From the NCBI GenBank assembly GCA_017484285.1, contig JAFUTH010000011.1:3127-67126 (forward strand): DNA of 64,000 nucleotides, given 5' to 3'. Under the pieces are notes generated by a model, which made no database searches, was not told the origin of the DNA, and saw nothing but the letters and a program-made list of their open reading frames with translations. How positions within the stretch are numbered: the stretch's first letter is position 1; every line of letters begins with the position of its first letter. The DNA comes from Treponema sp. (GTDB lineage: Bacteria; Spirochaetota; Spirochaetia; Treponematales; Treponemataceae). Shown here piece after piece: positions 738 to 51,358 of this stretch. The position numbers were made by a program, and so were the translations under genes.

Positions 738-895
738 AAAATCCTCCTAAGATTTTTGAATGTAATCTCTCACAGAGATTTGCGAAAAGTTTAAGGAGCA
801 TTTCAGAATCAGTCTTGAGTGTTACGCACGGTTTTTAAGAAAAAATTTATCTTTTTCTTAGATTTTTCTAAAAGACCCATGCTAAAATGGAGATT

Positions 896-1555
896 ATGGA
901 GAAATTGATTTTCATTTTTGAGCATCAAGAAGTCACCATCAACGGCATTGAACGGTGGTTTTCGTCCATCACAAAGTATCGTATCGCGGCAAAGGCTCGC
1001 ACGGTCGACAACGCGCTCAAGGTCATAGAGCAGGCGCACCTCAGCGAACATCAGTGCGCCGTCGCTATCATGGGGCTGTCGTTCCGTGGCACGGGCGAAG
1101 AGCCGAATGAGGACGGGCTTGCGATTCTTGAGGCAATAAAACGCTCCAAAAAGAACATTCGCGCGCTCATGTTCACGTCGCGCGATGCAGGCTGCCATGT
1201 GCGCAAGGTGATGTCGGAGCAGTACGGAGCGAAGGGCTTCGTCTCAAAGAACGCGGGGCGCGACACGTTGTTTGAGGCTCTTGAGGCGGTGTTCGAGGGA
1301 AAAACATATATCCAGCACGAGCTGAACGCAACGCTCAATGAGGTCAACAGTCTCTACGCCACCTTCACGCCAAAAGAGCGCACGATTCTACATGAGCTGC
1401 AACGCGGGCTGTCAAACCAGCAGGTCGCCGAGGAACTGGGGCTTTCGCTCCGCACGGTAGAAAATCATATCTCGCACATCTACACCAAAACGGGAGTAAA
1501 CGACAAGCATCTCCTCTTCATTAAAATAGGCATGGGGGGGGGTATAAATGTATAG
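896..1555 (+). CDS. NarL/LuxR-family regulator with atypical receiver domain
   Basis: C-terminal LuxR HTH (FTPKERTILHELQRGLSNQQVAEELGLSLRTVENHISHIYTKTGV). REC fold lacks the acidic pair (FEH) and the phospho-Asp (VAIMG). Start 896 preferred because ATG 887 overlaps the -10 box. Confidence 0.85.
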   Translation: MEKLIFIFEHQEVTINGIERWFSSITKYRIAAKARTVDNALKVIEQAHLSEHQCAVAIMGLSFRGTGEEPNEDGLAILEAIKRSKKNIRALMFTSRDAGCHVRKVMSEQYGAKGFVSKNAGRDTLFEALEAVFEGKTYIQHELNATLNEVNSLYATFTPKERTILHELQRGLSNQQVAEELGLSLRTVENHISHIYTKTGVNDKHLLFIKIGMGGGINV

Positions 1556-1607
1556 GTAATTTTTTTCTGTCCTTTTTAGAAAGCCTGTGTTACAATTATA
1601 AGCATCT

Positions 1608-2822
1608 ATGGACAATCAATCCCTTCAAGCCGCGACCGCGCTTTTTTACGTGTGCTTTGATTTATTCTGCGCCCTCATCATGGGCATTTTGCTCTATACG
1701 ACGCTCAGCGATGTCGAGCGCTCAAACAAGCGTGTTCATCTCACGAGAGTTCTCATCACGGTCATTCTGTACTGCGTTGTGGATTCCATTTGGATGCTCG
1801 CATACAGCGACTACAAGATTCCCCGCACGGTCGTAAGCCGCTACCTCACCAATATCATCATGTACACGGTCATGGCAATCTGCGCGTACACAATCAGCCG
1901 TTTTTTGTTCTCCATTTGGGAATCGGTCAGCCCCAAAAAAACGCTCATCAGAAATCTGATTTTCACGCCGTTCGCGCTCGCGCTGCTCGCCATCTTCACC
2001 ACGTGCTGGACTCACCTCGTTTTTTCAATCGACGAGGGCGGCAATCTCGTGAAGGGCGCGCTCTATCTTCCGCTCATGATTCTGCTGTTTGGCTACGTGA
2101 TTGTGTTCGGCGCAACATCGCTCGGCTTTTTCTTTAGCACGCAGAACGACTTTGCAAAAGAGCAGTATTTTTTGGTCGCCATTTATACGGTGCCTGTCAT
2201 TGTGGGGGCGCTCGTGCACTACTTCTACTGGAGCATTCCGTCGTTCGCGATTGGCTTTACGGTGGCAACGCTCATCATCTATATCTTCCAGATGCGCGAC
2301 TTGATTTCACTCGACGCGCTCACGGGCATCAGCAACCGCCGTCAGGGTGAGCGGTTCTTCCTTGAGCAAATCAAGCAGATAAACGAGTCACCGTACACGA
2401 GAATGGAATGTCTCTATCTCTTTATGATGGATTTAAACAAATTCAAGGCAATCAACGACACGTACGGCCACACGGAAGGCGACCGCGCGCTCGTTGCCAC
2501 GGCGGAAGTGCTCAAAGAAGCGTGCGCCCATATCCGCAGGCGATGCATTATGAGCCGCTTCGGTGGCGATGAATTTGTGATTGGCGTCATGTTCACGCCC
2601 GACGAAGCGCAAATACTGAGCGACAAAATCTACGACCTCATCGAAAAAAAGAACGCAGAGCTCAACGCCCCGTACAAAATCTCAATCAGCGTGGGCTACA
2701 CCTATTACAAAAAGAGTTTCGCCGATTTCAGAACGTTCCTCTCGAATGCAGACAAGCTCATGTATGAAATGAAAGCCATCGTGCACCGAGAAGATAAGCT
2801 CAACGGCGACGATGAACGATAA
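1608..2822 (+). CDS. Membrane-bound diguanylate cyclase (multi-TM sensor + GGDEF)
   Basis: About 7 hydrophobic helices, then DALTGISNRR, MMDLNKFKAINDTYGHTEGD and intact RFGGDEF. No RxxD I-site upstream of the motif. Confidence 0.92.
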   Translation: MDNQSLQAATALFYVCFDLFCALIMGILLYTTLSDVERSNKRVHLTRVLITVILYCVVDSIWMLAYSDYKIPRTVVSRYLTNIIMYTVMAICAYTISRFLFSIWESVSPKKTLIRNLIFTPFALALLAIFTTCWTHLVFSIDEGGNLVKGALYLPLMILLFGYVIVFGATSLGFFFSTQNDFAKEQYFLVAIYTVPVIVGALVHYFYWSIPSFAIGFTVATLIIYIFQMRDLISLDALTGISNRRQGERFFLEQIKQINESPYTRMECLYLFMMDLNKFKAINDTYGHTEGDRALVATAEVLKEACAHIRRRCIMSRFGGDEFVIGVMFTPDEAQILSDKIYDLIEKKNAELNAPYKISISVGYTYYKKSFADFRTFLSNADKLMYEMKAIVHREDKLNGDDER

Positions 2823-2866
2823 CCGCCGCCGCACTCGAGTAAGCTATTCGCCGTCGCTTGAATGAA

Positions 2867-3151
2867 CTAATCCGCAGCTTTTACGAGGAAGAGCTTTATG
2901 CCCTCGCCCGAGAATTTTTCTTTCACTGCTTTTATAATCGCTTTGAGCGTTTTGACTTTTTCGTCAGCAATGTAGCTTACGAGCACAAAATTCGTCTCGG
3001 GCCAGGTGGCGCTTCCCATCTTGTAGGAATTTTTTCCGCGTCCGACCGCCATCGGAATAATCGTGTACAGCACGTCGGGAATATGCTCTTCCATAAGCCC
3101 GACGATTTCGTCCTGCACGGACTGATTGGCGATAATCTCACATCTCGTCAT
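2867..3151 (-). CDS. PII-like transporter-associated protein (PG0541-like)
   Basis: 94 aa, GlnB-like pattern (YTIIPMAVGRGKNSYKMGSATWPETNFVLVSY), 1 nt downstream of the RND gene. Confidence 0.65.
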   Translation of the reverse strand: MTRCEIIANQSVQDEIVGLMEEHIPDVLYTIIPMAVGRGKNSYKMGSATWPETNFVLVSYIADEKVKTLKAIIKAVKEKFSGEGIKLFLVKAAD

Positions 3152-3152
3152 G

Positions 3153-7216: not shown

Positions 7217-7238
7217 ATCAACAAACTCCATTATGTTA

Positions 7239-7272: not shown

Positions 7273-8598
7273 CAGCGTGCCAAACGGAACGCCGATTGTA
7301 TTCTCCAAATTCAAAATCGCCCTGATGAGCGTGAGCGTTTCGCTTTTGAGCGAGACTTGTGCATTCAAGAGCGACGTATTCGCGTCTTGCAACGTGAGCA
7401 AATCTTTGGTACCACGGTTGTACGCCTCCTGCGTCATGTCGTATGTTTTTTGCGCCAACGCGACGTTTGCCTGTTTGTATTGGATTGATTCTTGGCTCTG
7501 CCGGATTGAGCGAAGGCTTGAGTCGACCGTGCGCTTTAAGTTCTTCATTTCGTTGTCAAGCTGAAGCTCCAAGTCTTTTACCGTGTCTTCGGCACTGTCA
7601 ATCGCATCGTTGCGGCTCGACCAGGGGAGCACGCCGTCGAGCGGAATCGTCGCCGAGAGCGTAAGGGCGGTCGTCTTTGTGGCGTCTGGAGCCGTGCCGT
7701 CGTAGCCGAGATACCAGCTTTGGTCGCGCCAGGTGAGCGATGCGCTCAAACTCGGTGCGAATGCGGAAAATCGCTTGTCCAAGACACTGTTTTTCGCAGT
7801 CGCGAGCTTGTATTCAAGCAATTTGATAGATGATGACTGCACGTCCTTCATGTCGACGTCGATTTTATTCAGCGTGAGCACGTCGTCGAGCGAGCCGGAA
7901 AGCTCAATGCGCTCGTCAATCGGAAGCCCGAGCATCTGCTTGAACTCAGCCAAATCGTTCAAAAACGTCGTGCGCGCGCTTCCGACCGTGGGAATCTTGC
8001 TCTTGTAGTTGACTTCCGCAGAAAGCACGTCGATTTCGCTCAAGCGTCCCTGATTGTACTTTGCGAGGTTGTTGTTATACTGCGTCTTTGCGATTTCAAG
8101 GTTCTGCTCTTGCAGCGTGATGTTTTCTTTTTCGTACAAAAGCCCGTAGAATGCCTCGCGCACGCTCAGCTCCACGGATTTTACCGCATCGTCAAAATTG
8201 AGCTTTCCCGACTCATAGGCAATCTTTGCGCTCTGCATCGATGTGTACAGATTTGCCGAAAGCGAGAGAGAAAGCGTCGCCGAAACACCGAACGAAGCCG
8301 CGTAGCCCGCATCGTTGTCGCTCAAGGCATCAATCGGAACAGAAGATGACGCACTCACGCTCGCCGTGGGGCTTACGCTGTTCCATGAATGGTCTTTTGT
8401 TCGCTTTGCCGCATCAAGCGTAATCTGCTCGCGAGCAAGGGAAACGTTATTCTTTTTGGCGAGTGCGACCGCATCATCGATTGAAAGCGTGGTCGCAGTC
8501 TCTCGTGCTGTGGACGAACGCTGTTCGCCTTCCTGTGCACCGAGCAGTGCCACAGACGTAAAGAAAATCGCCGACAGTATAGATAAGTGCTTTCTCAT
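7243..8598 (-). CDS. tolC: TolC-family outer membrane efflux protein
   Basis: Signal peptide and two OEP-like repeats (LSIDDAVALAKKNN; YNQGRLSEIDVL; YNRGTKDLLTLQDA). First gene of a TolC-MFP-RND operon. Confidence 0.88.
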   Translation of the reverse strand: MRKHLSILSAIFFTSVALLGAQEGEQRSSTARETATTLSIDDAVALAKKNNVSLAREQITLDAAKRTKDHSWNSVSPTASVSASSSVPIDALSDNDAGYAASFGVSATLSLSLSANLYTSMQSAKIAYESGKLNFDDAVKSVELSVREAFYGLLYEKENITLQEQNLEIAKTQYNNNLAKYNQGRLSEIDVLSAEVNYKSKIPTVGSARTTFLNDLAEFKQMLGLPIDERIELSGSLDDVLTLNKIDVDMKDVQSSSIKLLEYKLATAKNSVLDKRFSAFAPSLSASLTWRDQSWYLGYDGTAPDATKTTALTLSATIPLDGVLPWSSRNDAIDSAEDTVKDLELQLDNEMKNLKRTVDSSLRSIRQSQESIQYKQANVALAQKTYDMTQEAYNRGTKDLLTLQDANTSLLNAQVSLKSETLTLIRAILNLENTIGVPFGTLGNGNLKTEN

Positions 8599-8606
8599 AC
8601 ACTCTT

Positions 8607-8635
8607 ATAATATCGGCGACTATCAAAAGTTTCAA
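8607..8635 (-). promoter_or_regulatory. Sigma70-type promoter of tolC operon (near-leaderless)
   Basis: TTGAAA-17 nt-TATTAT, 8 nt before ATG 8598. Confidence 0.6.
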
Positions 8636-8660: not shown

Positions 8661-11516
8661 TTATTTTGATTTCATTGTGTACACGCCATCCCACGGAGAC
8701 GGAACGCCATTTTTGATGAAATCGACACAGCGCGCCATAAAGACCTTTGCGCTCTCATCGTCCGGGTACAGTTCGTCCGCCTGCTTGTACAATTCGTAGG
8801 CTTTCTTGAGTTCCTCGGGATTCTTCGGTTCTTGCGGCGTGTCGATGCCTTTGAGATACCAGCGCATTCCCTCATTGAAGAGCTCCGTTGCCTTGATTCG
8901 CTTTTCGCTCAGCTCAGCGCGCAGACCGATGATTGAATAAATCCCGACCGGCTTTTTGACGTTGATGACACGCACGTAGTCGAGTTTTCGCGCGACGATT
9001 TTCCCACGGTTCTCGCCGAGATTCGCATTGTGCCACGTGGACTCAGAGCACATAATCCATGAGCCATACGCTTTGTTTGTTCCTTCGAGACGGCTCGCAA
9101 GGTTTACGTTGTTGCCCATAATCGTGTAGTTCAATTTTTTCTCCGTTCCCATGTTTCCGACGACCATGTTTCCCGAATTCAAGCCGACGCGCGAGTGCAA
9201 GAAGAACGGCTCGCCCGTCTGCGGGATAATCGGCAGCTCGTGCTTGTGCTCTTCGTTGAAGCGTTTTTCTGCCTGCAACATGCGGATTCCGGCGACGCAC
9301 GCGTCGAACGCATTGTTCTCGTCGTGCACTGGCGCACCGAAGAACGAGACGATTTCGTCACCGACGTATTTGTCGATGGTGCCCTTGTTGTCCATGATGG
9401 CGTCGCTCAGCACGCCGAGATAGTCGTTCAAAATGGCGACGAGCCGTTGTGCGCCCTTGTCCTCACCCTCTTCGTTGTTGATAACTTCGGTGAACGCCGA
9501 GAACGATTTGACATCGGAGAACAGCGCGGTGAGATTGTCGCTTTTGCCGCCCAATCGCGCGATTTCTGGATTTTTGACAATCTGCTCAACAACCGCAGGC
9601 GCGACATAGGCACCGAACGTTGTCTGCAAGAATTTTTTGTCTTTTTCGCTCGTAGCGAATCGGTAAATCGTCATGGCGAGATACGAACTGAACGCAATCA
9701 AAAACGGCGTGAGTGCGGGGACGTATCGGCTGAACAGCGTCATCGCAAGCGCGGGGAACACGAGCGATATGAGAACGAGCGTCACACCGGTCGTGTTCTG
9801 AACGAACGCCTTTTTTTCGGCGGGAAGCACGATGAGCACGAGCGCAAGCACACCAATAATGAGCACACCCCACCCCCAGCGCACCGGATAGATAAAATCC
9901 TCGTTCATAATCGTGTTGTACACGTTCGCGTGCGTTCCCACATTCATGTACGCGCGCTCAAACGGCGTCGTACCCAGATCGGTTGTGGAGCTCGCCGTGT
10001 GCCCAAGAATGCAGAATGAATTCGCGTACACCGCTTTTTTTTCGGCGAACATCGAATTGTAGAGCGCGACTTCGTTCTCAAGCGTGTCAAACAGTTCCGA
10101 AAGGTCGTTCTGAATCGACTGGTATTCCTCGGGAGAGATGTGTTCCGAAATGGCAAACATGCGCTCGGCGATTTCGTCCATCGTCTTGTCCGCACAAAAT
10201 TCAGTCACGCCTTCAAAGAATGCCTTTCGGAACGAAAAATACTGCACGTAGTCCGAATATTCAACGCCACCACCGATTGCGTTTCCGTCGATGTCATACC
10301 CCTCGCACTTTGAGAGCAGAAAGTCCTTAAAATCCGCAATGTCATTGTAATCCGCGACCAGCGTGCGTATCGCGGCGGCGCTTTCCATCGGCGAGAGACC
10401 GGGAAGCTGCACCGCGTCGAGCGAAGCCAAGAATCGGGAGAGCGAATTAAGCTCAATCACGATATTTTTCTCAAGCTCATCAAGCTGCGCAAGGAAGTAT
10501 ACGCTCTCATGACGGAATGAATCGATGAACAGCGTATGCAGCCAGTTGATAATCATCTTTCCGTCGCTGTCCAGCGGAATCGAAATGCTCTTACCTCCGG
10601 CTCCCTGGCAGTTAGAAAGCTCCAAACGGCGCGCTTCCCGTGTAATGCGCTCCGGATTCAAGATGCGCACAATCGGCGCAAAGGCAAGCTGACCGGCAAA
10701 CACGCCGTCCTTGTCGTTCAAAAGCTCGATTCGGCGGCGCGTTCCGTCCATATCGATGATGACGTTCGTAAATCCCGCTCCGGCGGCATGGCTTAAAAAC
10801 TGATGCCGTGCGGGCGAGAATCCAATCAGGTATTTTTTGAGAAAGGCGGGATTCTCCCAATCAGGCTTTTCGGTGGTGAAGTTGTCGAGAAAAGATGTTT
10901 TTACGCTGTCGAGACGGCTCTTTCTGAAATTCTTGAGCGTCAGGCTGTCCTTGTCGTCGACATCATATAGAAAGCGTTTTTTTGCATATTCGATTTCGTC
11001 GTCAGAGTAGTCGATGTCAATGTCGAGCGTGTTAATCGTAAGCCATGTGTTTCCGAAGAACTGAATCGCGCGCGCAAAATAATCGTCGTTGTCGCGCACG
11101 AATTTTTCGAAATCAGGGCGCGTACCGTCAAAATTGGAAGCCGCTTCAATAATGGCATCCTCATCGACTGCGAGATTTGAGGGCGAAAGGTACTCAATAT
11201 CGAATACCGCCGTCGATGCGCCGAATTCTTTCATGCGGAGCAAGGCGTTCGCAAAAATGTCGCGCGTCCACGGCCAGGGTCCCATCGCCTGCAAAGAGGC
11301 ATTGTCCGCCTCGACGAGGAGCACTTCTTTTCGGACAGCAGGATTATTCGTAAAGCTCAGCACCAAATCGTACAGGCGGTAGTCAAATTTCTGCAACGCG
11401 CCAATCGCGCACAGGAGCGACCAGAAGACGAGAGAGCTCACCACGATGATAAGACCTGCGGTTTTCCGTGACAGATTTTTTTTACCCTCTTTGGGTTGTT
11501 TTGCATCTTTTCTCAT
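8661..11516 (-). CDS. CHASE2-domain class III adenylate cyclase with C-terminal TPR-like helices
   Basis: CHASE2 motifs (DYRLYD, VEADNASLQAMGPWPWTR, FDIEY, DMDGTRRR) and 3 TM helices. Cyclase motifs FSDVKSFS, IDKYVGDEI (Lys) and YTIMGNNVNLASRLE (Thr, Asn, Arg) fit an ATP-specific, catalytically intact enzyme. Confidence 0.92.
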   Translation of the reverse strand: MRKDAKQPKEGKKNLSRKTAGLIIVVSSLVFWSLLCAIGALQKFDYRLYDLVLSFTNNPAVRKEVLLVEADNASLQAMGPWPWTRDIFANALLRMKEFGASTAVFDIEYLSPSNLAVDEDAIIEAASNFDGTRPDFEKFVRDNDDYFARAIQFFGNTWLTINTLDIDIDYSDDEIEYAKKRFLYDVDDKDSLTLKNFRKSRLDSVKTSFLDNFTTEKPDWENPAFLKKYLIGFSPARHQFLSHAAGAGFTNVIIDMDGTRRRIELLNDKDGVFAGQLAFAPIVRILNPERITREARRLELSNCQGAGGKSISIPLDSDGKMIINWLHTLFIDSFRHESVYFLAQLDELEKNIVIELNSLSRFLASLDAVQLPGLSPMESAAAIRTLVADYNDIADFKDFLLSKCEGYDIDGNAIGGGVEYSDYVQYFSFRKAFFEGVTEFCADKTMDEIAERMFAISEHISPEEYQSIQNDLSELFDTLENEVALYNSMFAEKKAVYANSFCILGHTASSTTDLGTTPFERAYMNVGTHANVYNTIMNEDFIYPVRWGWGVLIIGVLALVLIVLPAEKKAFVQNTTGVTLVLISLVFPALAMTLFSRYVPALTPFLIAFSSYLAMTIYRFATSEKDKKFLQTTFGAYVAPAVVEQIVKNPEIARLGGKSDNLTALFSDVKSFSAFTEVINNEEGEDKGAQRLVAILNDYLGVLSDAIMDNKGTIDKYVGDEIVSFFGAPVHDENNAFDACVAGIRMLQAEKRFNEEHKHELPIIPQTGEPFFLHSRVGLNSGNMVVGNMGTEKKLNYTIMGNNVNLASRLEGTNKAYGSWIMCSESTWHNANLGENRGKIVARKLDYVRVINVKKPVGIYSIIGLRAELSEKRIKATELFNEGMRWYLKGIDTPQEPKNPEELKKAYELYKQADELYPDDESAKVFMARCVDFIKNGVPSPWDGVYTMKSK

Positions 11517-11611
11517 GACAAATAGTATAACACAGGATATAATAGAACTGTAGATTTTCTTGAGTAATTCTTAAAATTCCAAGAAATGAGTTCAAAAACA
11601 GGAGTTCACCC

Positions 11612-18140: not shown

Positions 18141-18737
18141 CTACTGCAAATCCGCTCGCTTTGAGACGATTTTGCTCACCAAGCCGTACTCAAGAGCCTC
18201 TTCTGCCGTGAGCCAGTGGTCACGGTCGCAGTCTTTTTCGACTTGTTCTTCGCTTTTGCCTGTTTCGGCAGCGATGAGTTTAATCAACTTCTTTTTTGAC
18301 TTTGCGATTTCTTCGGCTTGGATTTCCAAATCAGTCGCAACTCCGCGCGCCACACCGCCAATCAACGGCTGGTGAATGAGATAGTGGCTGTTCGGGAGCG
18401 CAAAACGACGCTCTTTTGGCACGGAAAGCAAGATGATTGAACCCATACTCGCGATAAGCCCCGTACCAATGGTGTACACAGGCGCGTTGATAAAGCGAAT
18501 CATGTCGTAAATGCCAAACCCTGAGTCGATAGAGCCTCCGGGTGAGTCGATGTAGATATAAATCGGCTTGTCGCTGTCTGCCTCGAGCAAAAGAAGCTGC
18601 TTGATGACCTTTGCCGTGTTTTCTTCGTTGATTTCGCCGCTCAAAATAATCTGGCGGGTCTTTAAAAATTTCTCGGAAAGCGAGTCGTCCTTTTGTTCAG
18701 ACTTTTTTTCTTCGTCGTTGTCGTTAAAAATTCTCAT
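18141..18737 (-). CDS. clpP: ATP-dependent Clp protease proteolytic subunit
   Basis: YIDSPGGS, catalytic ASMGS, IHQP, DRDHWLTAEEALEYGL. Confidence 0.97.
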   Translation of the reverse strand: MRIFNDNDEEKKSEQKDDSLSEKFLKTRQIILSGEINEENTAKVIKQLLLLEADSDKPIYIYIDSPGGSIDSGFGIYDMIRFINAPVYTIGTGLIASMGSIILLSVPKERRFALPNSHYLIHQPLIGGVARGVATDLEIQAEEIAKSKKKLIKLIAAETGKSEEQVEKDCDRDHWLTAEEALEYGLVSKIVSKRADLQ

Positions 18738-18743
18738 GCTCTA

Positions 18744-18772
18744 AATATACCGAAAAGAACGCAAAAGTACAA
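18744..18772 (-). promoter_or_regulatory. Sigma70 promoter of clpP (leaderless)
   Basis: TTGTAC-17 nt-TATATT, 6 nt before ATG 18737, no SD. Confidence 0.65.
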
Positions 18773-19710: not shown

Positions 19711-20348
19711 TTTTTGCTCCAGCTCTGCAAAATCCGATTCGGGTCGGAAGAAAGCAAGAGTTTGCAGAACATCTCGTTTGTGGGCGCAAATTCCTGCGCG
19801 AGGATAATCCGCTCGTCCGCCGTGAAATTTGAGAGCACGTAATCGGCGATGTTTACGTTCGCGGGCTTTGAAATGCCAAAGCGAAGCCGCCAAAAATCAG
19901 CTGTGCCGAGCACCGCTTTTGCTGAGCGAAGCCCGTTGTGACCGCCCAAGCCGCCGCTCCATTTTAAACTCACCGTGCCAATCGGAAGCTCCAGTTCGTC
20001 ATGCACGACCAAAATTTCGTCGTTGTTGATTTTGAAAAATCGCGCAAGCTCGCCGATTGACTCGCCGCTTAAATTCATGTAGGTGAGCGGCTTTAGAAAG
20101 TAGATTTTTTCGGGTGCGTTCTCAGGCACACGGGGAGTGCCGCCGTCTTTTGTGGTGTACACGCCCGTTTCGCCCATCCATTCGGCAAGCGTGCGCGTTT
20201 CGACGACGGCATAATCACCCTTGAATTTGTTTTGAAACGAAAATTTAGCATAAAACGGAAGCTGGCTTGCGAACTGCCACGCGACATTGTGCCGCGAGAG
20301 TTTGTATTCCTCACCGTAATTTCCTAAAAAAGCGACCAATCGAATCAT
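19692..20348 (-). CDS. pth: Peptidyl-tRNA hydrolase
   Basis: LGNYGEEYKLSRHNV, KPLTYMNLSG, VVHDEL, GGHNGLRS, RLRFGI. Start set at MIRLVAF (20348). Confidence 0.96.
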   Translation of the reverse strand: MIRLVAFLGNYGEEYKLSRHNVAWQFASQLPFYAKFSFQNKFKGDYAVVETRTLAEWMGETGVYTTKDGGTPRVPENAPEKIYFLKPLTYMNLSGESIGELARFFKINNDEILVVHDELELPIGTVSLKWSGGLGGHNGLRSAKAVLGTADFWRLRFGISKPANVNIADYVLSNFTADERIILAQEFAPTNEMFCKLLLSSDPNRILQSWSKKKIIEN

Positions 20349-20448
20349 GCACTCATTATAGTGCAAAAGCACGCGCAAGAGAAGTGTATCAAAATGACAC
20401 AGGGATTTCGCAATTTTGGAACACTGTGTTTTTTTGACTCACGCGCTA

Positions 20449-23667: not shown

Positions 23668-24267
23668 CTAAAACGGAATCATACTGATTAACGTGCCGAG
23701 TATGCGAATCACGTAGGAAACGGCGACGGACGTAACAATCAGCGTGATGATTGACGTGACGAGCGCTTTTACGAACGAGATAGACTGCCCGCGGAAGAAC
23801 GCGCCTGCGATTCGGAACATGAGCGGCGAGAGCGAGCGGTCAACGACCGTCCAAATCGAATAAGACACATTTCCATCACCGATGATAAGATACACAATCA
23901 GCCGCACAACGAGAATCACGACCAAAAATCCGAGAATTGAGGTGATGATATTTCCCACGAGCATGACGAGCATTGCGAGGATTGTTGAAAGGCGGAAGCC
24001 TGTTCCCATGGCAAGGCTCGTAAAGAACGCCTGAGCCGCCATGAGCACACAAAGCGCAATTGCTGGCGTAAAATCAAATGAAGAAAAGCGCAAAAAGCGC
24101 AAGCGGCGGAAGAGATTCAGATACGGGTCGCACATTTGGGCGAGCACTTGCCCGAATTTTGAATACTCCGCGCCCGGAAACCAGGAGAGCATCACCCGGA
24201 CAAAACAGAGCAGTATGTAAATCGAGGCGACAGACGCCAATACAGAAAAAAGTGCGTTTATATTCAT
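23668..24267 (-). CDS. yggT: YggT family membrane protein
   Basis: RVMLSWFP...QMCDPYLNLFRR...FDFTP; tandem YggT-like halves. Confidence 0.85.
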   Translation of the reverse strand: MNINALFSVLASVASIYILLCFVRVMLSWFPGAEYSKFGQVLAQMCDPYLNLFRRLRFLRFSSFDFTPAIALCVLMAAQAFFTSLAMGTGFRLSTILAMLVMLVGNIITSILGFLVVILVVRLIVYLIIGDGNVSYSIWTVVDRSLSPLMFRIAGAFFRGQSISFVKALVTSIITLIVTSVAVSYVIRILGTLISMIPF

Positions 24268-24273
24268 ACAAAA

Positions 24274-24302
24274 AATATACTGGTTTCTTGCAAAAAAGAC
24301 AA
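24274..24302 (-). promoter_or_regulatory. Sigma70 promoter of yggT-recG (leaderless)
   Basis: TTGTCT-17 nt-TATATT, 6 nt before ATG 24267. Confidence 0.65.
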
Positions 24303-24354
24303 AGAAAAAATCTTTTCATTTGAACAATTGTGAAAGCATGATACAATCATCGGT

Positions 24355-24888
24355 ATGGAACATACACAGAACAAAAATCCAATGAAAAAAATCGGCATTC
24401 TGATGAACATTTTGATGGGCGTGTCGCTCAGTTGCGCGCTTTCGCTCACGGGTTTTGGCTTGTCAGGGCATTTTGAACTCGTGCCGTGGCTTATCAGTTT
24501 TGCGCTCAGTACGGTACTCAGTCTTATCATCGGTTTTTGCCTTCCCGTACGAAAAGCCGAGGCTGCATGCTGTAAAAAGTGCGGGCTTCAAGAACGCTCG
24601 CTCGGCGCGCTTGCACTCAGTTCACTCATTTCAGACCTGTTTTATACGCCTGTCATCACGCTGCTTATGGTCGCGCTCGCCTATTCTGGTGCAAAAAAGG
24701 GAATTGAAGCCGCACTTGCGAACGGTGCACCCGCTGAATCGCTTCCACAGCTTCAGTTTTTGCCGATGTTCTTGCATTCGCTTGTTATCTCGCTGATAGT
24801 TGGCTACGTGCTCATTTTTATCTTGCAGCCGCTCTATCTTAAGATACTCACGCGAAACCTGCCCGCTACACCATCCACACGTCCTTAA
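24355..24888 (+). CDS. Hypothetical 4-TM membrane protein
   Basis: 177 aa with four hydrophobic segments. TGaTACAAT extended -10 lies 7 nt upstream. Confidence 0.7.
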   Translation: MEHTQNKNPMKKIGILMNILMGVSLSCALSLTGFGLSGHFELVPWLISFALSTVLSLIIGFCLPVRKAEAACCKKCGLQERSLGALALSSLISDLFYTPVITLLMVALAYSGAKKGIEAALANGAPAESLPQLQFLPMFLHSLVISLIVGYVLIFILQPLYLKILTRNLPATPSTRP

Positions 24889-27800: not shown

Positions 27801-28573
27801 GGCTCGTTCATGTTCTTTTTAAAACCAATGCAACGCAAGCAATCCTGAGCCTCAGCGTCTTCCTTTTCGATGTAGTGAATATCGTTCGTAACGACGAGCG
27901 GAATGTCGAGTTCGTGGGCGAGCGCAATGAGTTTTTTGTTGACGAGCTTTTGGTCTTCAAGCCCGTGGTCTTGCAACTCGATGTAGTAATGGTCTTTTCC
28001 GAAAAGATTTTTGTATTTGAGCGCGAGTTCTTTTGCTTCTTCGTCTTTGTTGGCAAGCAAAAGCTGGGGAAGCTCGCCCGCAATACACGCAGAACAGCAG
28101 ATTAAGCCCTCGTGATACTTTTCGAGCAGCTCAAAATCAATGCGCGGCTTGTACCACGTGCCCTCGGTGTAGGCGATTGAAGAAAGCCAGCTCATGTTTT
28201 TGTAGCCCGTCTCGTTTTCGCAGAGCAGAATGAGGTGGAAGTAGCGGGCTTGCCTGTCGCCGTCCTCGCCCTTTCGCGAATAGGGAACGGAATTCTTTTC
28301 TAAATGAGAGCCGTACGCGACATAAAATTCTTCGCCGACAATCGGGTTGATTCCGTTTACATGGCAGAGTTTTTCAAAATTGAGCGCGCCGAACATGTTT
28401 CCGTGGTCAGTAAGCGCGAGCGCGGGCATGTTGAGCCGTTTTGCCTTTGCCACCAAATCGTCAAGGCGTGCGCACGAGTCGAGCAACGAATAATCCGAAT
28501 GAACATGAAGATGAACAAAATTACTGACCGGCGTTCCCTCGGGAGCCGCATCAAAAACGTGATAATCTGCCAT
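24866..28573 (-). CDS. dnaE: DNA polymerase III alpha subunit
   Basis: PHP domain HLHVHSDYSLLD, GRGSGAGS, PDFDVD, KFDYLGL, YGFNKSHA, OB fold. Start set at MADYHV (28573). Confidence 0.97.
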   Translation of the reverse strand: MADYHVFDAAPEGTPVSNFVHLHVHSDYSLLDSCARLDDLVAKAKRLNMPALALTDHGNMFGALNFEKLCHVNGINPIVGEEFYVAYGSHLEKNSVPYSRKGEDGDRQARYFHLILLCENETGYKNMSWLSSIAYTEGTWYKPRIDFELLEKYHEGLICCSACIAGELPQLLLANKDEEAKELALKYKNLFGKDHYYIELQDHGLEDQKLVNKKLIALAHELDIPLVVTNDIHYIEKEDAEAQDCLRCIGFKKNMNEPHQTMGEGRSEWYFKTEEEMRLLFPDCPEAYDNTIKIANMCNLTIHQYKTQELKACLPRFELPKEFQTHGDDYAANQDDYVRYLVEKGLRDRYGTITPQIRQRAEYELGIIFKMGFSGYFLIVWEFINWSKSTYDNVNKRPKPYIPIGPGRGSGAGSLVAYCMTITDIDPFRFKLIFERFLNPERVSMPDFDVDMDFDYRQDIIQHTRDLYGDPQVGHIVTFGTLKPKNVIADVGRTLGIPLAEVNMLKSKVSENLKAKLKNCFEPANEKFPDGGQLAEFRHDPRYEKLFDLALKLEGCKRNTGLHASGMVIGLTALPDWAPVFMDPKTHEVGVQYTMDIIEPCGLVKFDYLGLKTLSLIRYAENIINKHKKPGEPDFVCAKVSETDPKTFELFKRGDSVAVFQFESPGMQKILRQFQPEKLEDLVALNALYRPGPMDYIPNYIDGKWKPETVHYPDPCLEPILKETYGVMVYQEQVMQVSQKIAGFSLGGADMLRRAMGKKKPEVLMGKKVEFEEGAVKQGFTKEHADEIFEIMIPFAGYGFNKSHAAAYSVLAYRTGWLKANKPAEFMAANLTNEITSTDGLPAYIAEARRIGVPVDPPDVNRSDAIFDVIDGHIVFGFKGIKGMGDGAARAIVKEREANGPYKDFMDFLIRVIGSKNEPTEEEKAEGKVGRASPINKKAVEVLIKCGGFDNLGQNRPTLISNLERAYAYAEKIALGSDDGQLSLFGDTDEKEYTDYVFEEVEDCSRLEKLNMEKELIGCYVSGHPLDDYKKAYEKATVNSLTIARAAKDDKAEKDALASSGKNPWQMRNAGRVHSAVGMVTDLRTIMTKKGAQMAFAKLQDYNGSFDLTFFPKTWEAMKDKIQNDTVYAFKGKIDSSREQPSMLVDAIEDPKLLQEKAIEEVHIQLESGFNDEKQIFNLKEYLFGNSGTCAVYFHIDTDQDTYIVKASAQLTAPSTKEFAEELKSIPFVKDVWMV

Positions 28574-28600
28574 ACGGTAAAGTATAGCACAGCGCGAGAT

Positions 28601-28653
28601 AAAAAAAAATGCCCCGCAGCAAGCACTTTCGTTTTTGTGCTTGCTGCGGGGCA
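28601..28653 (-). terminator. Intrinsic terminator after groES
   Basis: Perfect 17-bp stem TGCCCCGCAGCAAGCAC/GTGCTTGCTGCGGGGCA followed by a T9 tract on the minus strand. Confidence 0.85.
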
Positions 28654-38283: not shown

Positions 38284-40650
38284 CTACTTTTTCAAAATAA
38301 ATTCTACTCGCCTGTTTTTCCAGCGGTCTTCAATTGCCGTTGAAAGCGTGGCGGGATTTTTGCTTCCATTGCCCGTGGCTTTGAGGTTCGATGAGGGAAC
38401 GCCGTCCTTTATGAGCCAGTCACGCACAAACTGCGCGCGCTGCTCCGAGAGCAATTTGACTTCATCTTCTTCTTGCTGAGAGCCTGAAAGATTGTTTGCG
38501 TTTCCTTCGATAGTGACGTTATAGTCGCGGAATTTTTTAAGAATCTCGGAGATTCGCCCCAAGACTTTGACGTTGTTCTCAAGCGTGCGCTGATCGAGAC
38601 CGAGCGTCTTTCCGTCATAATCGGCTCGGGCTGCCAGTTCCTCGGTCGTCTTAAAATCTGCCGCGTCACTTCGGAAGATGATAGACGGAACTTGCATTTT
38701 AATGCGCTCTCCCTCGCGGATAACGAGCACGTCGACTTTGACAAACCCCTTAATTGTGCTTGAGAGATTGTTTGAATCCGTGACGGTGAATTCGTAGGGA
38801 TAATCCGTTGCAGACTGAACGACTTCGCCACGCGCGCTCTTTCCGTTCCACACGATTTTTTCCTGTAAGTCAGTTGTGCCTTTGATGCTCCAGAACGGCT
38901 TTAATGTTGCCGGGTCTTCGACCGTGAACGACCATGATTTCATCGGAGCATCGCACTCAGCCTTGACCATAATCGTAAGGTCGTCATATTCGCCATCGCC
39001 ATCAGGTGAGAAATACTGCGGAGAAATGCCGACCGAGAGTTTTGGTTCTTTTGAGTCCTGCGGAACTTCCGACTGCACGAATGACTGGATTTCCTCGGCA
39101 GGCTCTTCATCTTCTTTTGGCGGAACGTATTTTTTGAGGATGAGCGGTGCCGTCGATTCTTGATAAAAGCCCTCGGGCGACAACACAACATCGTGCAAGA
39201 TAATGGTATCAGTGTCGACAAGCTCTTTTTCGGTTATTCTGCCACGGGCATCGCGCTCAGTCGTTTGCGTAACCGAAAAAGATGGTACATACACGCGCTT
39301 AAAGAAGGGCACTTCGTGCGCCGAGCGGAACTGCAAGAGCGTGCTTCCCTGCACGTCGTTTGTGGTAAAGCGCCCTGAGTCATATGAAGTAAGCCCGCTT
39401 GCGACATAGCTATTTTCGGTGAATTTGAGGACAGTCTTGTCGCTCGCTTCCCAGGTGCCTTGTTCGATAAGACGCGAAACGCACGCGCTTTCTTTGGTGG
39501 GCGTTACTTTCTGCCCTTCTTTTGACGTGAATTTTTTGTAATTGCCGTCCCAGAGCGTGCTTTCGTTAATCAGCATGCGCACGTCGTCTTGCAATTTGAT
39601 TTTGATTTCGTCCGTGCTTACGAGCGAGATGTCAAAACGACGCTGCAAATTTTCGATGGATTTGTTGACCGCCGAAAAATAAATACCGTTACGGCGAAGC
39701 GTGCTGTTGAGCCATGAATACACTTCCTCTGAGTCTTCATATTCGAAGATGATTTCAGAATTCGGATAGTCAAACGAAATATACCGGATACTTACGCCAC
39801 TGTTTTCGATTTTGTACCACAGCCCGTCAAGAAAATTTCCAAACGTAGCGACCGTGCCGTCTTGAATGCGCGCCAGCTCCTTTTGAGCAAGCGTGTTTCC
39901 TGCGACGCGGAGCGTTTTGACTGCGACATACATGCCCTCTGACTCATCCCACTCATACATTGTTTGGATTTGATCGAGTTTTGCCGCATCTGCGCCACTG
40001 GTCTTTTGCTCGGAAGTGTACACCCACACGGGGAACGGCTTGTCTTTTGCGTGATTCAGTTCGTACGCTTCACTGCGCGGGCTTTGCTGAATAAAAATCG
40101 TGCCGTCAGCCTCGAAATCGCCGATTGGCTTGAGAATGAATTCTCCGGCGTTGTTGCGATTTCCGAGGAAGATTTTGAGCACGACCGAGCCTGAGTCAGT
40201 CACGCCCTGATAGATGAGCGCATTTTTGTGATTTCCAAGCACATCGAGACTCGTGCATGCAAATGTTTTGACCTGCGTAATTGTGGTCGCGAGATAATTA
40301 GTTCGTTCGTAGTTGCCGTTTTTGGGATTGTACAGACCGACAATCAGCACGATGTACGGACTCGCCCCCGTTTTTACCATGTTGACTTGATCGTCGTAGC
40401 CGTCACCGTCGATGTCCATCTCAAGCGTGCCGACGAGCGTTTCGCCGTTTGAAAGCTGAATGAATGGGGTTTGCTTTAAGCCGTCAGAATACTCGTTGCT
40501 TTTTGCGCCATCTTCCTGCTCACCGACGAGCGGAATAACGACGCGTGCACGAGAAATGACGTTATTTTTTACAAAGAGATTTCGGCTGAAAAACAAGAGA
40601 GCCAGCCCAGCCGCCGTCAATATAAAGACGACGGGAATCATTCGCTTCAT
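38284..40650 (-). CDS. Membrane-anchored envelope protein: pallilysin-related-adhesin-like N-terminus + FlgD/Ig-like + OmpA-like domain
   Basis: N-terminal TM and MDIDGDGYDDQV; PQYFSPDGDG...IVWNGK...YPYEFTVTD (FlgD Ig-like); IIF...IEGNAN...LSEQRA...NRRVEF (OmpA_C). The adhesin-like call is tentative. Confidence 0.65.
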   Translation of the reverse strand: MKRMIPVVFILTAAGLALLFFSRNLFVKNNVISRARVVIPLVGEQEDGAKSNEYSDGLKQTPFIQLSNGETLVGTLEMDIDGDGYDDQVNMVKTGASPYIVLIVGLYNPKNGNYERTNYLATTITQVKTFACTSLDVLGNHKNALIYQGVTDSGSVVLKIFLGNRNNAGEFILKPIGDFEADGTIFIQQSPRSEAYELNHAKDKPFPVWVYTSEQKTSGADAAKLDQIQTMYEWDESEGMYVAVKTLRVAGNTLAQKELARIQDGTVATFGNFLDGLWYKIENSGVSIRYISFDYPNSEIIFEYEDSEEVYSWLNSTLRRNGIYFSAVNKSIENLQRRFDISLVSTDEIKIKLQDDVRMLINESTLWDGNYKKFTSKEGQKVTPTKESACVSRLIEQGTWEASDKTVLKFTENSYVASGLTSYDSGRFTTNDVQGSTLLQFRSAHEVPFFKRVYVPSFSVTQTTERDARGRITEKELVDTDTIILHDVVLSPEGFYQESTAPLILKKYVPPKEDEEPAEEIQSFVQSEVPQDSKEPKLSVGISPQYFSPDGDGEYDDLTIMVKAECDAPMKSWSFTVEDPATLKPFWSIKGTTDLQEKIVWNGKSARGEVVQSATDYPYEFTVTDSNNLSSTIKGFVKVDVLVIREGERIKMQVPSIIFRSDAADFKTTEELAARADYDGKTLGLDQRTLENNVKVLGRISEILKKFRDYNVTIEGNANNLSGSQQEEDEVKLLSEQRAQFVRDWLIKDGVPSSNLKATGNGSKNPATLSTAIEDRWKNRRVEFILKK

Positions 40651-40673
40651 AGAACGCTATTCTAGCAAAAAAT

Positions 40674-42065
40674 TTAATGAGTGTCATTCGCACTCGCTGC
40701 CTCTTGCTCCATCTTCTTAAAGCCCTTGTTCATGTACAGGAACATGCAGAGCGCCATAAAAATGGAGACGTAATCGGCAATCGGCTGGGCGAGCACAATG
40801 CCCTCAAGCCCGAGGAACATGTTCAAGAGGATAATCGCGGGCAAGAAGACAAATCCCTGACGGCTCACGGCAAGCGCGAGTGACGGAAGCGCCTTTCCCA
40901 TCGCCTGGAACGAGAAGTTGAACATAAAGAGAATGCCGACCACCGGGCTTGACACCATGAGCGCACGGAGCATTCGCACGCCCGCGTCGATAACCGTCGG
41001 ATCGTTGATGAAGATGTTCACAATCTGGCGCGTAAAGATAAAATAGAGCGCGGTGAGCGAAATGCCAGCGGTAATATTGCAGAGCATGGCGAATTTCATT
41101 GCGGCTTTCATTCGCTTGAAATTTTTTGCGCCAAACGTGTAGCCAATGAGCGGCTGCGTTCCTGCGGCAACACCGAGTTGCACGAAGATGACGAGCATGT
41201 TCGCTTTCATGGCGATGCCCATGCCCGCCACGTTCACATCGCCGTAGCTCACGAGGAATTTATTCGTGAGGATATTGCTCAAGCTCATGAGAATGTTCGT
41301 AAGCGAGGCGGGCAAGCCGATTAACAGCACGCCCTTTAAGATGCCGTTTCGCATCGCAAAATACTTCGGGCTGAGCGTCAGCACGGAATTTTTTGAAATG
41401 ACATGAAAAAAGCACACCACAATCGACACGAGGTTTCCGATGACCGTTGCAATCGCCGCGCCCGCAACGCCAAGACCCAAGCACGGAATGAACAAAAAGC
41501 GGTCGAGAATAAAAATCGGGTCGAGCACAATGTTCGCAATCGTGCCCGCCATCATCGCCTTCATCGCGCTCTGAGACGCGCCCTCGCCGCGCACCAAATT
41601 GGTGAACGCCGTAGAGACGACAATCGCCACGCCGCCGTACGCAATCCATGAGAGATATTCTTTTGCGTAGCCAAACGTGTTCTCGCTCGTACCGACGGCT
41701 TGCAAAATCTCCGTCATAAAAGAGAACATGAGAATCGTACCGATAATGCCGACGGCAATGCCCGCATACAAACAGAATGAACTGATGTTTTTTGCCTTGT
41801 CGTATCGCTTTTCACCAAGTGCACGGCTCAAGAACGAAGAGCCGCCCATGCCGAAAATGTTTCCGGCTGCCATAAAGAACAAAAAAACGGGAGTCGCAAC
41901 GCTGACCGCTGCCATCTGATTTGCATCGCCTGTCTGTCCGACGAAGAACGTATCAACCATGTTGTAAAAAACTGAGACTATCATGCTCAGAACAGTCGGA
42001 AGCGCCAACTTAAAGACCGCGCGCGGAACGGGGTCGTTTTCAAAAACACTGATATTCTTTAACAT
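40674..42065 (-). CDS. MATE family efflux transporter
   Basis: KLALPTVLSMIVSVFYNMVDTFFVG, NLVRGEG, NIVLDPIF, about 12 TM helices. Confidence 0.95.
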   Translation of the reverse strand: MLKNISVFENDPVPRAVFKLALPTVLSMIVSVFYNMVDTFFVGQTGDANQMAAVSVATPVFLFFMAAGNIFGMGGSSFLSRALGEKRYDKAKNISSFCLYAGIAVGIIGTILMFSFMTEILQAVGTSENTFGYAKEYLSWIAYGGVAIVVSTAFTNLVRGEGASQSAMKAMMAGTIANIVLDPIFILDRFLFIPCLGLGVAGAAIATVIGNLVSIVVCFFHVISKNSVLTLSPKYFAMRNGILKGVLLIGLPASLTNILMSLSNILTNKFLVSYGDVNVAGMGIAMKANMLVIFVQLGVAAGTQPLIGYTFGAKNFKRMKAAMKFAMLCNITAGISLTALYFIFTRQIVNIFINDPTVIDAGVRMLRALMVSSPVVGILFMFNFSFQAMGKALPSLALAVSRQGFVFLPAIILLNMFLGLEGIVLAQPIADYVSIFMALCMFLYMNKGFKKMEQEAASANDTH

Positions 42066-42071
42066 GGGAAA

Positions 42072-42100
42072 AATTTACAAAAAACAGGGGTAAATGTCAA
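42072..42100 (-). promoter_or_regulatory. Sigma70 promoter of MATE gene (leaderless)
   Basis: TTGACA-17 nt-TAAATT, 6 nt before ATG 42065. Confidence 0.75.
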
Positions 42101-44490: not shown

Positions 44491-44509
44491 TCACGACATG
44501 GATGTCGAC

Positions 44510-46771: not shown

Positions 46772-46780
46772 AACGTTTTC

Positions 46781-48838: not shown

Positions 48839-48894
48839 TAAGACTCCTTGTATTTTTATTTCCCACCGAAAGAACTTTAAATGAATCTTATACA

Positions 48895-48902
48895 TTATCG
48901 GC
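48895..48902 (-). promoter_or_regulatory. Possible sigma28 (FliA) -10 element
   Basis: Exact GCCGATAA upstream of an MCP gene. A TAAA -35 at canonical spacing was not found. Confidence 0.35.
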
Positions 48903-49001
48903 TATTTCTGAGAAAAAGCAAATTCTATTTTGTACAATTTAATTCACGCGCATATGCCGAATATTGATTGAGCGTTTTTCTTTTTAATGTTACAGTCACT
49001 C

Positions 49002-49742
49002 ATGCTTGATTCGTCAAATTTCAGGCGGGCGGTCAAACTCACCACGCCCGTTTTTTTCGGATACATCGCGATTGGCATTCCGTTCGGGCTCATGGTCGTA
49101 AACGCGGGCTTTCCGTGGTGGCTCGCCGTCGCAATGAGTCTCCTCATTTACTCAGGCACGGGGCAGTACGTGGGCATCGCGCTCTTTTCTTCAGGGCTTG
49201 TGAACGCCTCAAGCTTTTGGGCGAGCGTGATTGCCTTTGTCGGAATCGAGTTTGTGATTGGTCTGCGCCACGTGTTCTATTCGCTCTCGCTTTTGGAAAC
49301 TTACCGCGGAACCGGAACATGGAAATTCCCGCTCATCTTTACCATTACTGACGAAACATTTGCGCTCATCTCTTCGTGCACTGTGCCAAAAGATGCCGAC
49401 AAGGGCGCGTATCTTGCAATCATCTCGCTCTTTGACTACTCATACTGGGTACTTGGAACGCTCATCGGCGCAATCGTGGGCAATTTTATTCCCGCGGGCT
49501 ACCTGAACGGCGTTGATTTTGCGCTCACCGCCCTTTTTATCGTCCTCATGATAAATCAAATCTCCGCAAGCAAGCGTTGGCTTCCCTCGCTCGTCGGCAT
49601 TTTTGCCACCGCCGTCGCCATCGCGCTCTCATACATCAAAATCGGCGGGCAAGCGATTTTACCGAGCCAGCACATCATTCTCACCGGTCTGTGCCTCGGC
49701 ATCGTCGTGATGATTGCGCTCACCAGAGGAGGCAAAAGATGA
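49002..49742 (+). CDS. azlC: AzlC family branched-chain amino acid transporter subunit
   Basis: PVFFGYIAIGIPFG, YSGTGQY, RHVFYS, TDETFA, GVDFALTALF. Start set at 49002. Confidence 0.9.
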   Translation: MLDSSNFRRAVKLTTPVFFGYIAIGIPFGLMVVNAGFPWWLAVAMSLLIYSGTGQYVGIALFSSGLVNASSFWASVIAFVGIEFVIGLRHVFYSLSLLETYRGTGTWKFPLIFTITDETFALISSCTVPKDADKGAYLAIISLFDYSYWVLGTLIGAIVGNFIPAGYLNGVDFALTALFIVLMINQISASKRWLPSLVGIFATAVAIALSYIKIGGQAILPSQHIILTGLCLGIVVMIALTRGGKR

Positions 49743-50095
49743 AATTCACCGCGATTGAATCCCTCATTGCGACGCTCTGCATCGGCGTCATGATGCTTTT
49801 GCTCCGCTTGCTGCCGTTCATCATCTTCCGAAAACGCTCCGTGCCCGCCTTTTTTGGCTTCATCGAGAAATTCATTCCCGCGATTTCGATTGCCGTGCTT
49901 TTTTGCGCGACATTCCGCGAGCGCACGACCGATTTGCTCTTTTTGAGCGCGCACCCGCTTTCGGAACTTCCGTCCGTGTTGTGCGCCGTTGGTGCCGCCA
50001 TCGTCACCGTGCTGCTCCATCTCTGGAAACGAAACGCAATGCTAAGCATTTTTGGCGGAACGATTCTCTACATGATTCTCAATTATTTTTTCTGA
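49739..50095 (+). CDS. azlD: AzlD family subunit
   Basis: LRLLPFIIF...FIPAI...WKRNAMLSIFGGT; ATGA overlap with the azlC stop. Confidence 0.85.
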   Translation: MKFTAIESLIATLCIGVMMLLLRLLPFIIFRKRSVPAFFGFIEKFIPAISIAVLFCATFRERTTDLLFLSAHPLSELPSVLCAVGAAIVTVLLHLWKRNAMLSIFGGTILYMILNYFF

Positions 50096-50126
50096 TTGAT
50101 TTTATGAAATATCTCCCCTCACCTTA

Positions 50127-50155
50127 TTGCAAACTTTGCCCATAAAAACTATTTT
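50127..50155 (+). promoter_or_regulatory. Sigma70 promoter of potABCD (leaderless)
   Basis: TTGCAA-17 nt-TATTTT, 6 nt before ATG 50162. Confidence 0.55.
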
Positions 50156-50161
50156 ATCTAT

Positions 50162-51358
50162 ATGAAAGGCAGTCAGGTTACTATTCAAGGTGTGAACAAA
50201 CATTTCGGCGATTTTATCGCTCTGGACACCATTGATTTTACGATTAAGCAGGGCGAATTTTTCACGCTGTTAGGACCGTCTGGGTGCGGAAAGACAACGC
50301 TTTTGCGCATTCTCGCAGGCTTTGAGTTTCCTGACGACGGCGCGGTGCTCTTTGACGATGTAGATGTCACGGAGTTGCCACCGAACAAACGCGCGTCAAA
50401 TACCGTGTTCCAAAATTACGCGTTGTTCCCGCATTTGAGCGTGTATGAAAATGTCGCGTTCTCGTTGCGATTGCAAAAACTTCCCAAAGCCGAAATCGAC
50501 GAAAAAGTGCGAAAATATGTGCATTTGGTGGAACTTGACGAGCATATCCACAAAAAGCCGAACCAGCTTTCAGGCGGGCAGCGGCAGCGAGTTGCGATCG
50601 CTCGCGCGCTGATTAACGAGCCGAAAGTTCTGCTTTTGGACGAGCCACTTTCCGCGCTTGACGCAAAATTGCGCTCAAATCTTCTGGTAGAACTTGACCG
50701 TCTGCATGACAAAATCGGCATCACTTTCATTTTTGTCACGCATGACCAGAGCGAAGCGCTTGCCGTCTCAGACCGAATCGCCGTCATGAATCACGGGCAT
50801 GTGTTGCAGGTCGGAACTCCGTACGAAATCTACGAAAGCCCCGCCACTCAGTTTGTCGCGCAGTTCATCGGCGAAACGAACTTGTTTGAAGCCACTGTCG
50901 TAAACTGCGAAAGCTACAAAGTGCCGGGCAAAGCCGACATCGAGCACATGGTTACGCTCAATGTTCCAGCTCTCGGATTGCAGGCTCAGCTTACGGGCGA
51001 CACACAGGCAACCAAAGAAGAAGACAAAAACATTCTCGTCACTGACTACGAGCACACCGACGAGGGGCAAAAAGTCGCATTCACCGTGCGCCCCGAAAAA
51101 ATCCGAATCACTTTGGAAGAGCCGAATGTGAACGGTCGCAAAGACATCAATGTGTTCAAAGGAATCGTCGAAGAACCAGTCTACACGGGCTTCCAGTCAA
51201 AATTCTATGTAAAGCTCGAAAAAACAGGCACCATCGTCAAAGTCTTTAAGCAGCATCAGAATTATCTTGACGACGGCCCCGAAATCCAGTGGAAGGACAC
51301 CGTGTACATCTCATGGTCAGCCGAAGACGGTTACATTGTGGAAGATATTGAAAAGTGA
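50162..51358 (+). CDS. potA: Spermidine/putrescine ABC transporter ATPase
   Basis: GPSGCGKTT, VFQNYALFPH, LSGGQRQR, LLLDEP, VTHDQSEA. Confidence 0.92.
   Translation: MKGSQVTIQGVNKHFGDFIALDTIDFTIKQGEFFTLLGPSGCGKTTLLRILAGFEFPDDGAVLFDDVDVTELPPNKRASNTVFQNYALFPHLSVYENVAFSLRLQKLPKAEIDEKVRKYVHLVELDEHIHKKPNQLSGGQRQRVAIARALINEPKVLLLDEPLSALDAKLRSNLLVELDRLHDKIGITFIFVTHDQSEALAVSDRIAVMNHGHVLQVGTPYEIYESPATQFVAQFIGETNLFEATVVNCESYKVPGKADIEHMVTLNVPALGLQAQLTGDTQATKEEDKNILVTDYEHTDEGQKVAFTVRPEKIRITLEEPNVNGRKDINVFKGIVEEPVYTGFQSKFYVKLEKTGTIVKVFKQHQNYLDDGPEIQWKDTVYISWSAEDGYIVEDIEK

Follow-up and report, generated by a model that had tools for sequence, protein, structure and literature searches.

Many genes of an uncultured Treponema carry a promoter-like -10 box so close to the start codon that their transcripts would have no leader, or almost none. 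Twelve such genes were described in an earlier note on a 64,000-nt stretch of the genome (contig JAFUTH010000011.1, positions 3,127–67,126, of assembly GCA_017484285.1; hereafter the window), which regarded leaderless initiation as a major mode of translation in this organism. The assembly comprises 3.17 Mb in 26 contigs, with ~48% G+C. We analysed the arrangement in the window, across the genome and among relatives. The box lies at a distance from the ATG that is sharp to a single base, is commonest among genes with a divergent upstream neighbour, and recurs in orthologues. Leaderless mRNAs made from promoters that abut the ATG are, in our judgement, very probably the best explanation of these boxes. 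The leaderless class coexists with initiation led by a Shine-Dalgarno (SD) sequence, and turnover between the two modes is quick from species to species.

A promoter box at a fixed distance from ATG

We define the gap as the number of nucleotides between the end of the -10 hexamer and the ATG, such that TANNNT starting at -12 has a gap of 6. Genes were called across the genome with a simple caller based on open reading frames (ORFs) and codon usage, giving a set of 2548. Among the 1837 genes with ATG as the first start codon, 177 (9.6%) have TANNNT starting at -12, compared with ~2.2% at neighbouring offsets (~40 genes per offset) and ~0.7% at in-frame ATGs inside genes. The extended -10 form, TGNTANNNT, occurs at gap 6 in 57 genes against a background of ~4 per offset (2–4 across the offset windows used), and at gaps 7, 8 and 9 in 16, 8 and 12 genes against ~3. 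The peak is present for ATG only; GTG and TTG starts have no box peak genome-wide.

Several features that played no role in choosing the 177 genes are those of promoters and transcription start sites. T, T and G stand at -35, -34 and -33 with frequencies of 0.67, 0.61 and 0.45, which matches a 17-nt spacer, and G stands at -14 with a frequency of 0.55, making TG at -15/-14. The base at -1 is a pyrimidine in 89% of cases. An SD-like motif precedes 9% of these genes, compared with 63% of the others. Positional enrichment across the genome had been set beforehand as one test of the leaderless proposal, and the enrichment found is strong, confined to one base and accompanied by these independent hallmarks.

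Genomic context also separates the genes with a box at gap 6. The box is present in 19.7% of genes whose upstream neighbour is divergent, and in 2.5% of those lying <30 nt behind a co-directional gene. When the co-directional upstream gene is further away, the proportion is 13% at 30–100 nt and 8% at >100 nt.

The class was then counted with a position-weight matrix trained on it and scanned over in-frame ATGs within the first 60 codons, at a threshold of 8 bits. Hits number 161, 56, 23 and 30 at gaps 6, 7, 8 and 9, respectively, against ~8 at control offsets. Counting each gene once, 270 of 2543 genes (10.6%) score at gaps 6–9 versus 40 at control offsets, an excess of 230 genes (9.0%). Matrix calls take in 20.9% of divergent-leading genes (control 3.2%) and 3.0% of tightly packed genes inside operons, and 2.2% of the 270 have an SD-like motif.

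The bases between box and ATG suggest where transcription may start when the gap is longer than 6. Most examples at gaps 7 and 8 have a pyrimidine immediately before the ATG, so transcription probably still begins on the A. Of the 12 extended -10 genes listed at gap 9, 9 have a purine as the seventh base beyond the box, which suggests leaders of 3 nt. Three of the gap-9 leader triplets are near-cognate start codons (ATC, CTG and ATT).

Divergent pairs in which both genes are called leaderless number 19 genome-wide against 15 expected, which is not notable. Their ATG-to-ATG distances are 28–257 nt, and the shortest (28–49 nt) imply overlapping promoters that face each other. One of the 19 is in the window, where the ATGs of yggT and the gene that starts at 24355 are 87 nt apart (24265–24357).

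Leaderless-type sites in the window

The window was scanned for TANNNT 5–8 nt upstream of an ATG opening an ORF of at least 80 codons. All 12 sites listed in the earlier note were recovered with the boxes and gaps it gave (Table 1), and Pfam agrees with its gene names. The domains found are a response regulator with GerE, an outer-membrane efflux protein, CHASE2 with a cyclase domain, ClpP, Pth, the YGGT family, DnaE, Pallilysin with OmpA, MatE, AzlC, and an ABC ATPase with TOBE.

Table 1 The 12 leaderless-type sites in the window (window coordinates; gap in nt; 17 is the spacer between the -35 and -10 hexamers)
Gene	ATG	Feature	Strand	Motif	Gap
LuxR-type response regulator	896	860..898	+	extended -10 TGcTAAAAT	7
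TolC-like outer membrane efflux protein	8598	8596..8635	-	TTGAAA-17-TATTAT	8
CHASE2 adenylate/guanylate cyclase	11516	11514..11552	-	TGtTATACT	7
clpP	18737	18735..18772	-	TTGTAC-17-TATATT	6
pth	20348	20346..20383	-	TATAAT	6
yggT (YggT family)	24267	24265..24302	-	TTGTCT-17-TATATT	6
hypothetical gene, 177 aa	24355	24319..24357	+	TGaTACAAT	7
dnaE	28573	28571..28609	-	TGcTATACT	7
Pallilysin-domain + OmpA-domain protein	40650	40648..40687	-	TGcTAGAAT	8
MATE efflux transporter	42065	42063..42100	-	TTGACA-17-TAAATT	6
azlC	49002	48968..49004	+	TGtTACAGT	5
PotA-like ABC ATPase	50162	50127..50164	+	TTGCAA-17-TATTTT	6

For plain TANNNT at four offsets, chance would give ~4.1 matches per 49 genes and P(>=12) = 6e-4, a value that is optimistic for four sites because the start there was shifted to a downstream ATG. 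On the genome-trained matrix, 8 of the 12 sites reach at least 8 bits, where the control-offset rate is 1.6% (P ~1e-6). This share is not significantly higher in the window than in the genome on average.

Individual sites differ in strength. Those of clpP (matrix score 16.5), pth (16.2), the MATE transporter (15.5) and yggT (12.5) are almost certainly true leaderless-type sites, as judged from their sequences. The sites of dnaE (14.6), the 40650 gene (13.8; estimated true fraction 0.88), the CHASE2 cyclase (8.8; 0.85), the 24355 gene (8.3) and the potA-like gene (2.6; 0.91 at gap 6) very likely belong with them. For tolC the score is 6.6 and the estimated true fraction 0.73. The LuxR and azlC sites are weak on the matrix, the former because it has no -35, and both were rescued by comparison with homologues.

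Other genes of the window are SD-led. GroES and two of the three window genes for methyl-accepting chemotaxis proteins, identities that Pfam likewise supports, have SD-like sequence, in line with the earlier note, and the third chemotaxis gene does not. That third gene (46781–48895, ATG 48895) has no recognisable SD and no promoter-proximal box; a TAGAAT lies ~30 nt upstream.

Two further observations concern genes of the window. A GGDEF gene with its ATG at 1608 (window 1580–1610) has TGtTACAAT 11 nt before the ATG and no SD, which suggests a leader of ~4–5 nt, a short-leader case. The gene at 38284–40650 encodes a 788-aa protein in which a C-terminal OmpA domain is joined to a Pallilysin beta-barrel domain, from the family to which Treponema pallidum Tp0751 belongs.

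Start codons within the open frame

In four window genes the frame contains a start codon upstream of the ATG that follows the box. The LuxR gene would start at ATG 896 instead of 887, which falls within the -10 box, and azlC at ATG 49002 instead of the first ATG, 48987, which overlaps the promoter. For pth and dnaE the longest ORFs begin with TTG, at 20378 and 28654, respectively, and the proposed starts are ATG 20348 and ATG 28573.

Orthologues were searched in 30 genomes of the same genus. Every assessable DnaE orthologue starts at the codon that corresponds to ATG 28573 and opens with M-A-D/E-x-H/K; likewise, 29 of 29 assessable Pth orthologues start at the counterpart of ATG 20348 and open with M-I-x-L-V-A-F-L-G-N. 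The AzlC alignment is looser; homology begins at 49002 or within a few residues, not at 48987. Across the genome, 97 of the 270 matrix calls rest on an ATG that another start codon precedes in its open frame, dnaE, pth and azlC among them. The suspicion that several of the listed ORFs start too far upstream is thus borne out by the N-termini of DnaE and Pth, by the looser alignment of AzlC and by these genome-wide calls.

Conservation and turnover among relatives

The same caller and statistic were applied to samples of 120–400 kb from other genomes, counting genes with TANNNT at gap 6 against the mean per offset; given that the samples are small and the genomes related, the comparison is descriptive only. 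A gap-6 peak is seen in three genomes of the same genus (G002, 16 versus a background of 7.8; G007, 15 versus 6.4; G016, 8 versus 1.9) and in a genome from another family of the order (G035, 19 versus 5.3). The count is 10 versus 2.0 in a genome from another family of the class (G066). In another genus of the same family there is no overall peak in the sample (G056, 8 versus 11). One distant spirochaete (G057, 0 versus 2.5) and 200 kb of E. coli K-12, the negative control (2 versus 1.9), have no gap-6 peak; a second distant spirochaete has 2 versus 1.1 (G086).

At the level of single genes the geometry recurs in orthologues despite diverged promoter sequence. Among 25 dnaE orthologues, 12 have a box at gap 6–9 without an SD, 10 are SD-led and 3 have neither; among 29 of pth, the numbers are 11, 9 and 9. 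For azlC a box at gap 6–8 is present in 12 of 20 orthologues, and in the closest of them the homologous ATG start lies behind TGaTATAGT at gap 7. At least five congener orthologues of clpP share the geometry and most others are SD-led. Ten strain-level copies of the clpP region from metagenomes differ in the spacer but not in the -35, the -10 or the 6-nt gap.

Other genes gave fewer comparisons. For tolC, the closest relative starts with a signal peptide and has a box 7 nt ahead of that start, and the sole orthologue found for the CHASE2 cyclase has TGaTATAAT at gap 8. Three close orthologues of the MATE gene retain TTGACA close upstream and lack an SD, and two of them carry a box with a gap of 7 or 9 nt. 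Orthologues of the 40650 gene have no SD and no precise box. Of the four yggT orthologues found, three have a clear SD and the fourth has competing starts with no box at gap 6–9, which makes a leaderless yggT look like a peculiarity of this lineage. The three closest potA orthologues are SD-led and two begin with TTG where this genome has ATG, so loss of the leader accompanies a change of start codon.

A box at gap 7 also precedes two distant homologues of the LuxR gene. Its paralogue on contig C7 (near 86059) encodes a protein 44% identical and has the same TGCTAAAAT-GGAGATT-ATG arrangement. The opening coding stretches of the two paralogues are nearly identical (window 860–920 versus contig C7), a likeness for which a regulatory constraint common to both, or local gene conversion, could be responsible.

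Changes between the leaderless and non-leaderless states were placed on a tree of two proteins from 31 congeners. They number at least eight for dnaE and at least five for pth, counts that are rough minima because the tree is quick and partly unresolved.

Discussion

From the arrangement of these boxes we infer both the point at which transcription starts and the mode of translation. The promoters would be of the sigma-70 type, with TTGnnn, a 17-nt spacer, an optional TG and TAnnnT, and with the -10 ending 6 nt, less often 7–9 nt, before the ATG. In this scenario RNA polymerase would begin on the first base of the ATG, or 1–3 nt before it, and the mRNA would have no leader, or almost none, and no SD. 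The ribosome with initiator tRNA would then bind the 5'-terminal AUG directly, which is the established mechanism for leaderless mRNAs.

The alternative that survives best, and which we nevertheless consider improbable, is that the boxes are real promoters that contribute little. Main expression would come from additional promoters further upstream, as leadered mRNAs without an SD, translated through S1- or A/U-rich standby binding or by coupling to the upstream gene. The box in ~3% of tightly packed genes inside operons, and the SD-less orthologues of the 40650 family, are consistent with this possibility. However, the box is eightfold enriched in genes that need a promoter of their own, and its position, fixed to a single base, goes together with a pyrimidine at -1 and A at +1, which would not be expected if the proximal promoter had no bearing on where transcripts begin.

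A second alternative, which seems to us less probable again, is that the starts are mis-assigned: the true codon would lie downstream with its own SD, and the promoter would give a short ordinary leader. The starts were chosen from sequence alone, and the length of the ClpP N-terminus varies among orthologues, as this alternative would allow. Against it, Pfam domains begin at residues 4–21 of the proposed window proteins, conservation of DnaE and Pth reaches back to residue 1 in ~30 species, and the peak exists for ATG alone. Least probable of the three is that TAnnnT at -12 is not a promoter element but reflects base composition or translation: it would be an A/U-rich enhancer or an in-frame stop codon, or arise by chance where spacers are AT-rich. 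Upstream regions are 63% A+T and -12 is in frame with the ATG, but -12 alone stands out among the in-frame offsets, the box is accompanied by TG at -15/-14 and by TTG at a spacing of exactly 17 nt, and the signal is absent from genes inside operons and from E. coli. The in-frame stop-codon artefact was rejected, given that 47% of the boxes have T as their third base and TAT, which is not a stop codon, is the commonest first triplet.

Several results weigh against leaderless mRNAs as the explanation, or narrow it. The earlier note had taken gaps of 5–8 nt as the leaderless geometry; gaps 6–8 are enriched, and 9 as well, but gap 5, the gap of azlC, has no genome-wide enrichment (6–8 genes versus 8–12 in the control). 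Gaps 8–9 imply leaders of 1–3 nt instead of none. The predicted structure of the first 45 nt does not distinguish the two classes (-4.6 kcal/mol for leaderless versus -4.8 for SD-led genes, p = 0.43). Signature sequences of 16S rRNA, which would contain the anti-SD, are absent across all 26 contigs, and an exact look-up of the ClpP protein returned DNA metagenome contigs only, from bioreactor samples among others, and no ends of transcripts. The ClpP matches and the missing 16S rRNA together suggest that the assembly is a metagenome-assembled genome. The class appears to comprise roughly 9–11% of genes and about a fifth of those that head transcription units, absolute percentages that are approximate because the genes come from a crude in-house ORF and codon-usage caller.

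As regards the proposal of a major mode, leaderless initiation is better described as a strong second mode. It is predicted for about 9–11% of all genes and for ~20% of divergent-leading genes; SD-like motifs precede about 58–63% of genes.

The classical leaderless mRNAs are those of E. coli and its phages, such as lambda cI, in which a 5'-terminal AUG is translated by 70S ribosomes. They depend on the 5' AUG and are independent of an SD, and the Treponema class is likewise restricted to ATG. Leaderless mRNAs are rare in E. coli, as in our peakless 200-kb control, whereas in this Treponema they would form a sizeable class that includes the housekeeping genes dnaE, pth and clpP.

Closer counterparts are found within the phylum. 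In Leptospira interrogans, ~440 genes have a primary transcription start site (TSS) that is <=10 nt away from the start codon, and 170–184 of these genes have it at the start codon itself (PMC5243855). In Borrelia burgdorferi, 19% of 5' untranslated regions are <10 nt and 85 mRNAs were called leaderless (PMC5314773). The phenomenon is the same and the proportions are of the same order as the 9–11% estimated here. Those studies are experimental maps of 5' ends, by differential RNA sequencing or 5'-end sequencing, whereas our estimate for Treponema is drawn from genome sequence; no TSS map of any Treponema was found in the literature searched. The signals also differ, in that the Leptospira study reported no sigma-70 consensus upstream of TSSs, whereas the boxes described here have a textbook -35, 17-nt spacer and extended -10, with spacing sharp to one base.

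Earlier surveys of genome sequences bear on the size of the class. Zheng et al. (2011, BMC Genomics 12:361, PMC3160421) predicted leaderless genes in 6 of 18 Spirochaetes genomes, at 1.8–6.9% of genes, from a TA-rich motif that resembles a -10 and immediately precedes the start. This is the same kind of signal as the one used here, and our ~9–11% lies above their range. According to the main text of the GeneMarkS-2 paper, which does not mention spirochaetes, its group C genomes, mainly Actinobacteria and Deinococcus-Thermus, have 25–50% of operons predicted as leaderless, and the Pribnow box is situated ~10 nt before the start (PMC6028130). The ~18–21% of divergent-leading genes in this Treponema, a figure from our own counts at a strict threshold, would be at or just under the group C range as given there.

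We suggest, tentatively and with slightly less than even confidence, that this Treponema clade of digesters and guts is a spirochaetal counterpart of the group C lineages. At least about one fifth of its transcription units would be leaderless and driven by promoters placed with one-base precision, and genes such as dnaE, pth, clpP, azlC and potA would flip repeatedly between modes, with changes of start codon such as TTG to ATG.

No new mechanism is revealed by these results, and the phenomenon is already known in other spirochaetes. Their practical consequence is that standard gene callers tuned to the SD will misplace starts in this genome and its relatives. About one fifth of transcription units probably bypass SD-dependent initiation, which matters for expression tools and for the reading of promoters in a genus with few genetic systems. 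From the perspective of evolution, the fast switching of one gene between modes across species provides comparative material on how initiation signals evolve. If the counterpart to group C is real, the clade would be a natural comparative system for selection for and against leaderless initiation.

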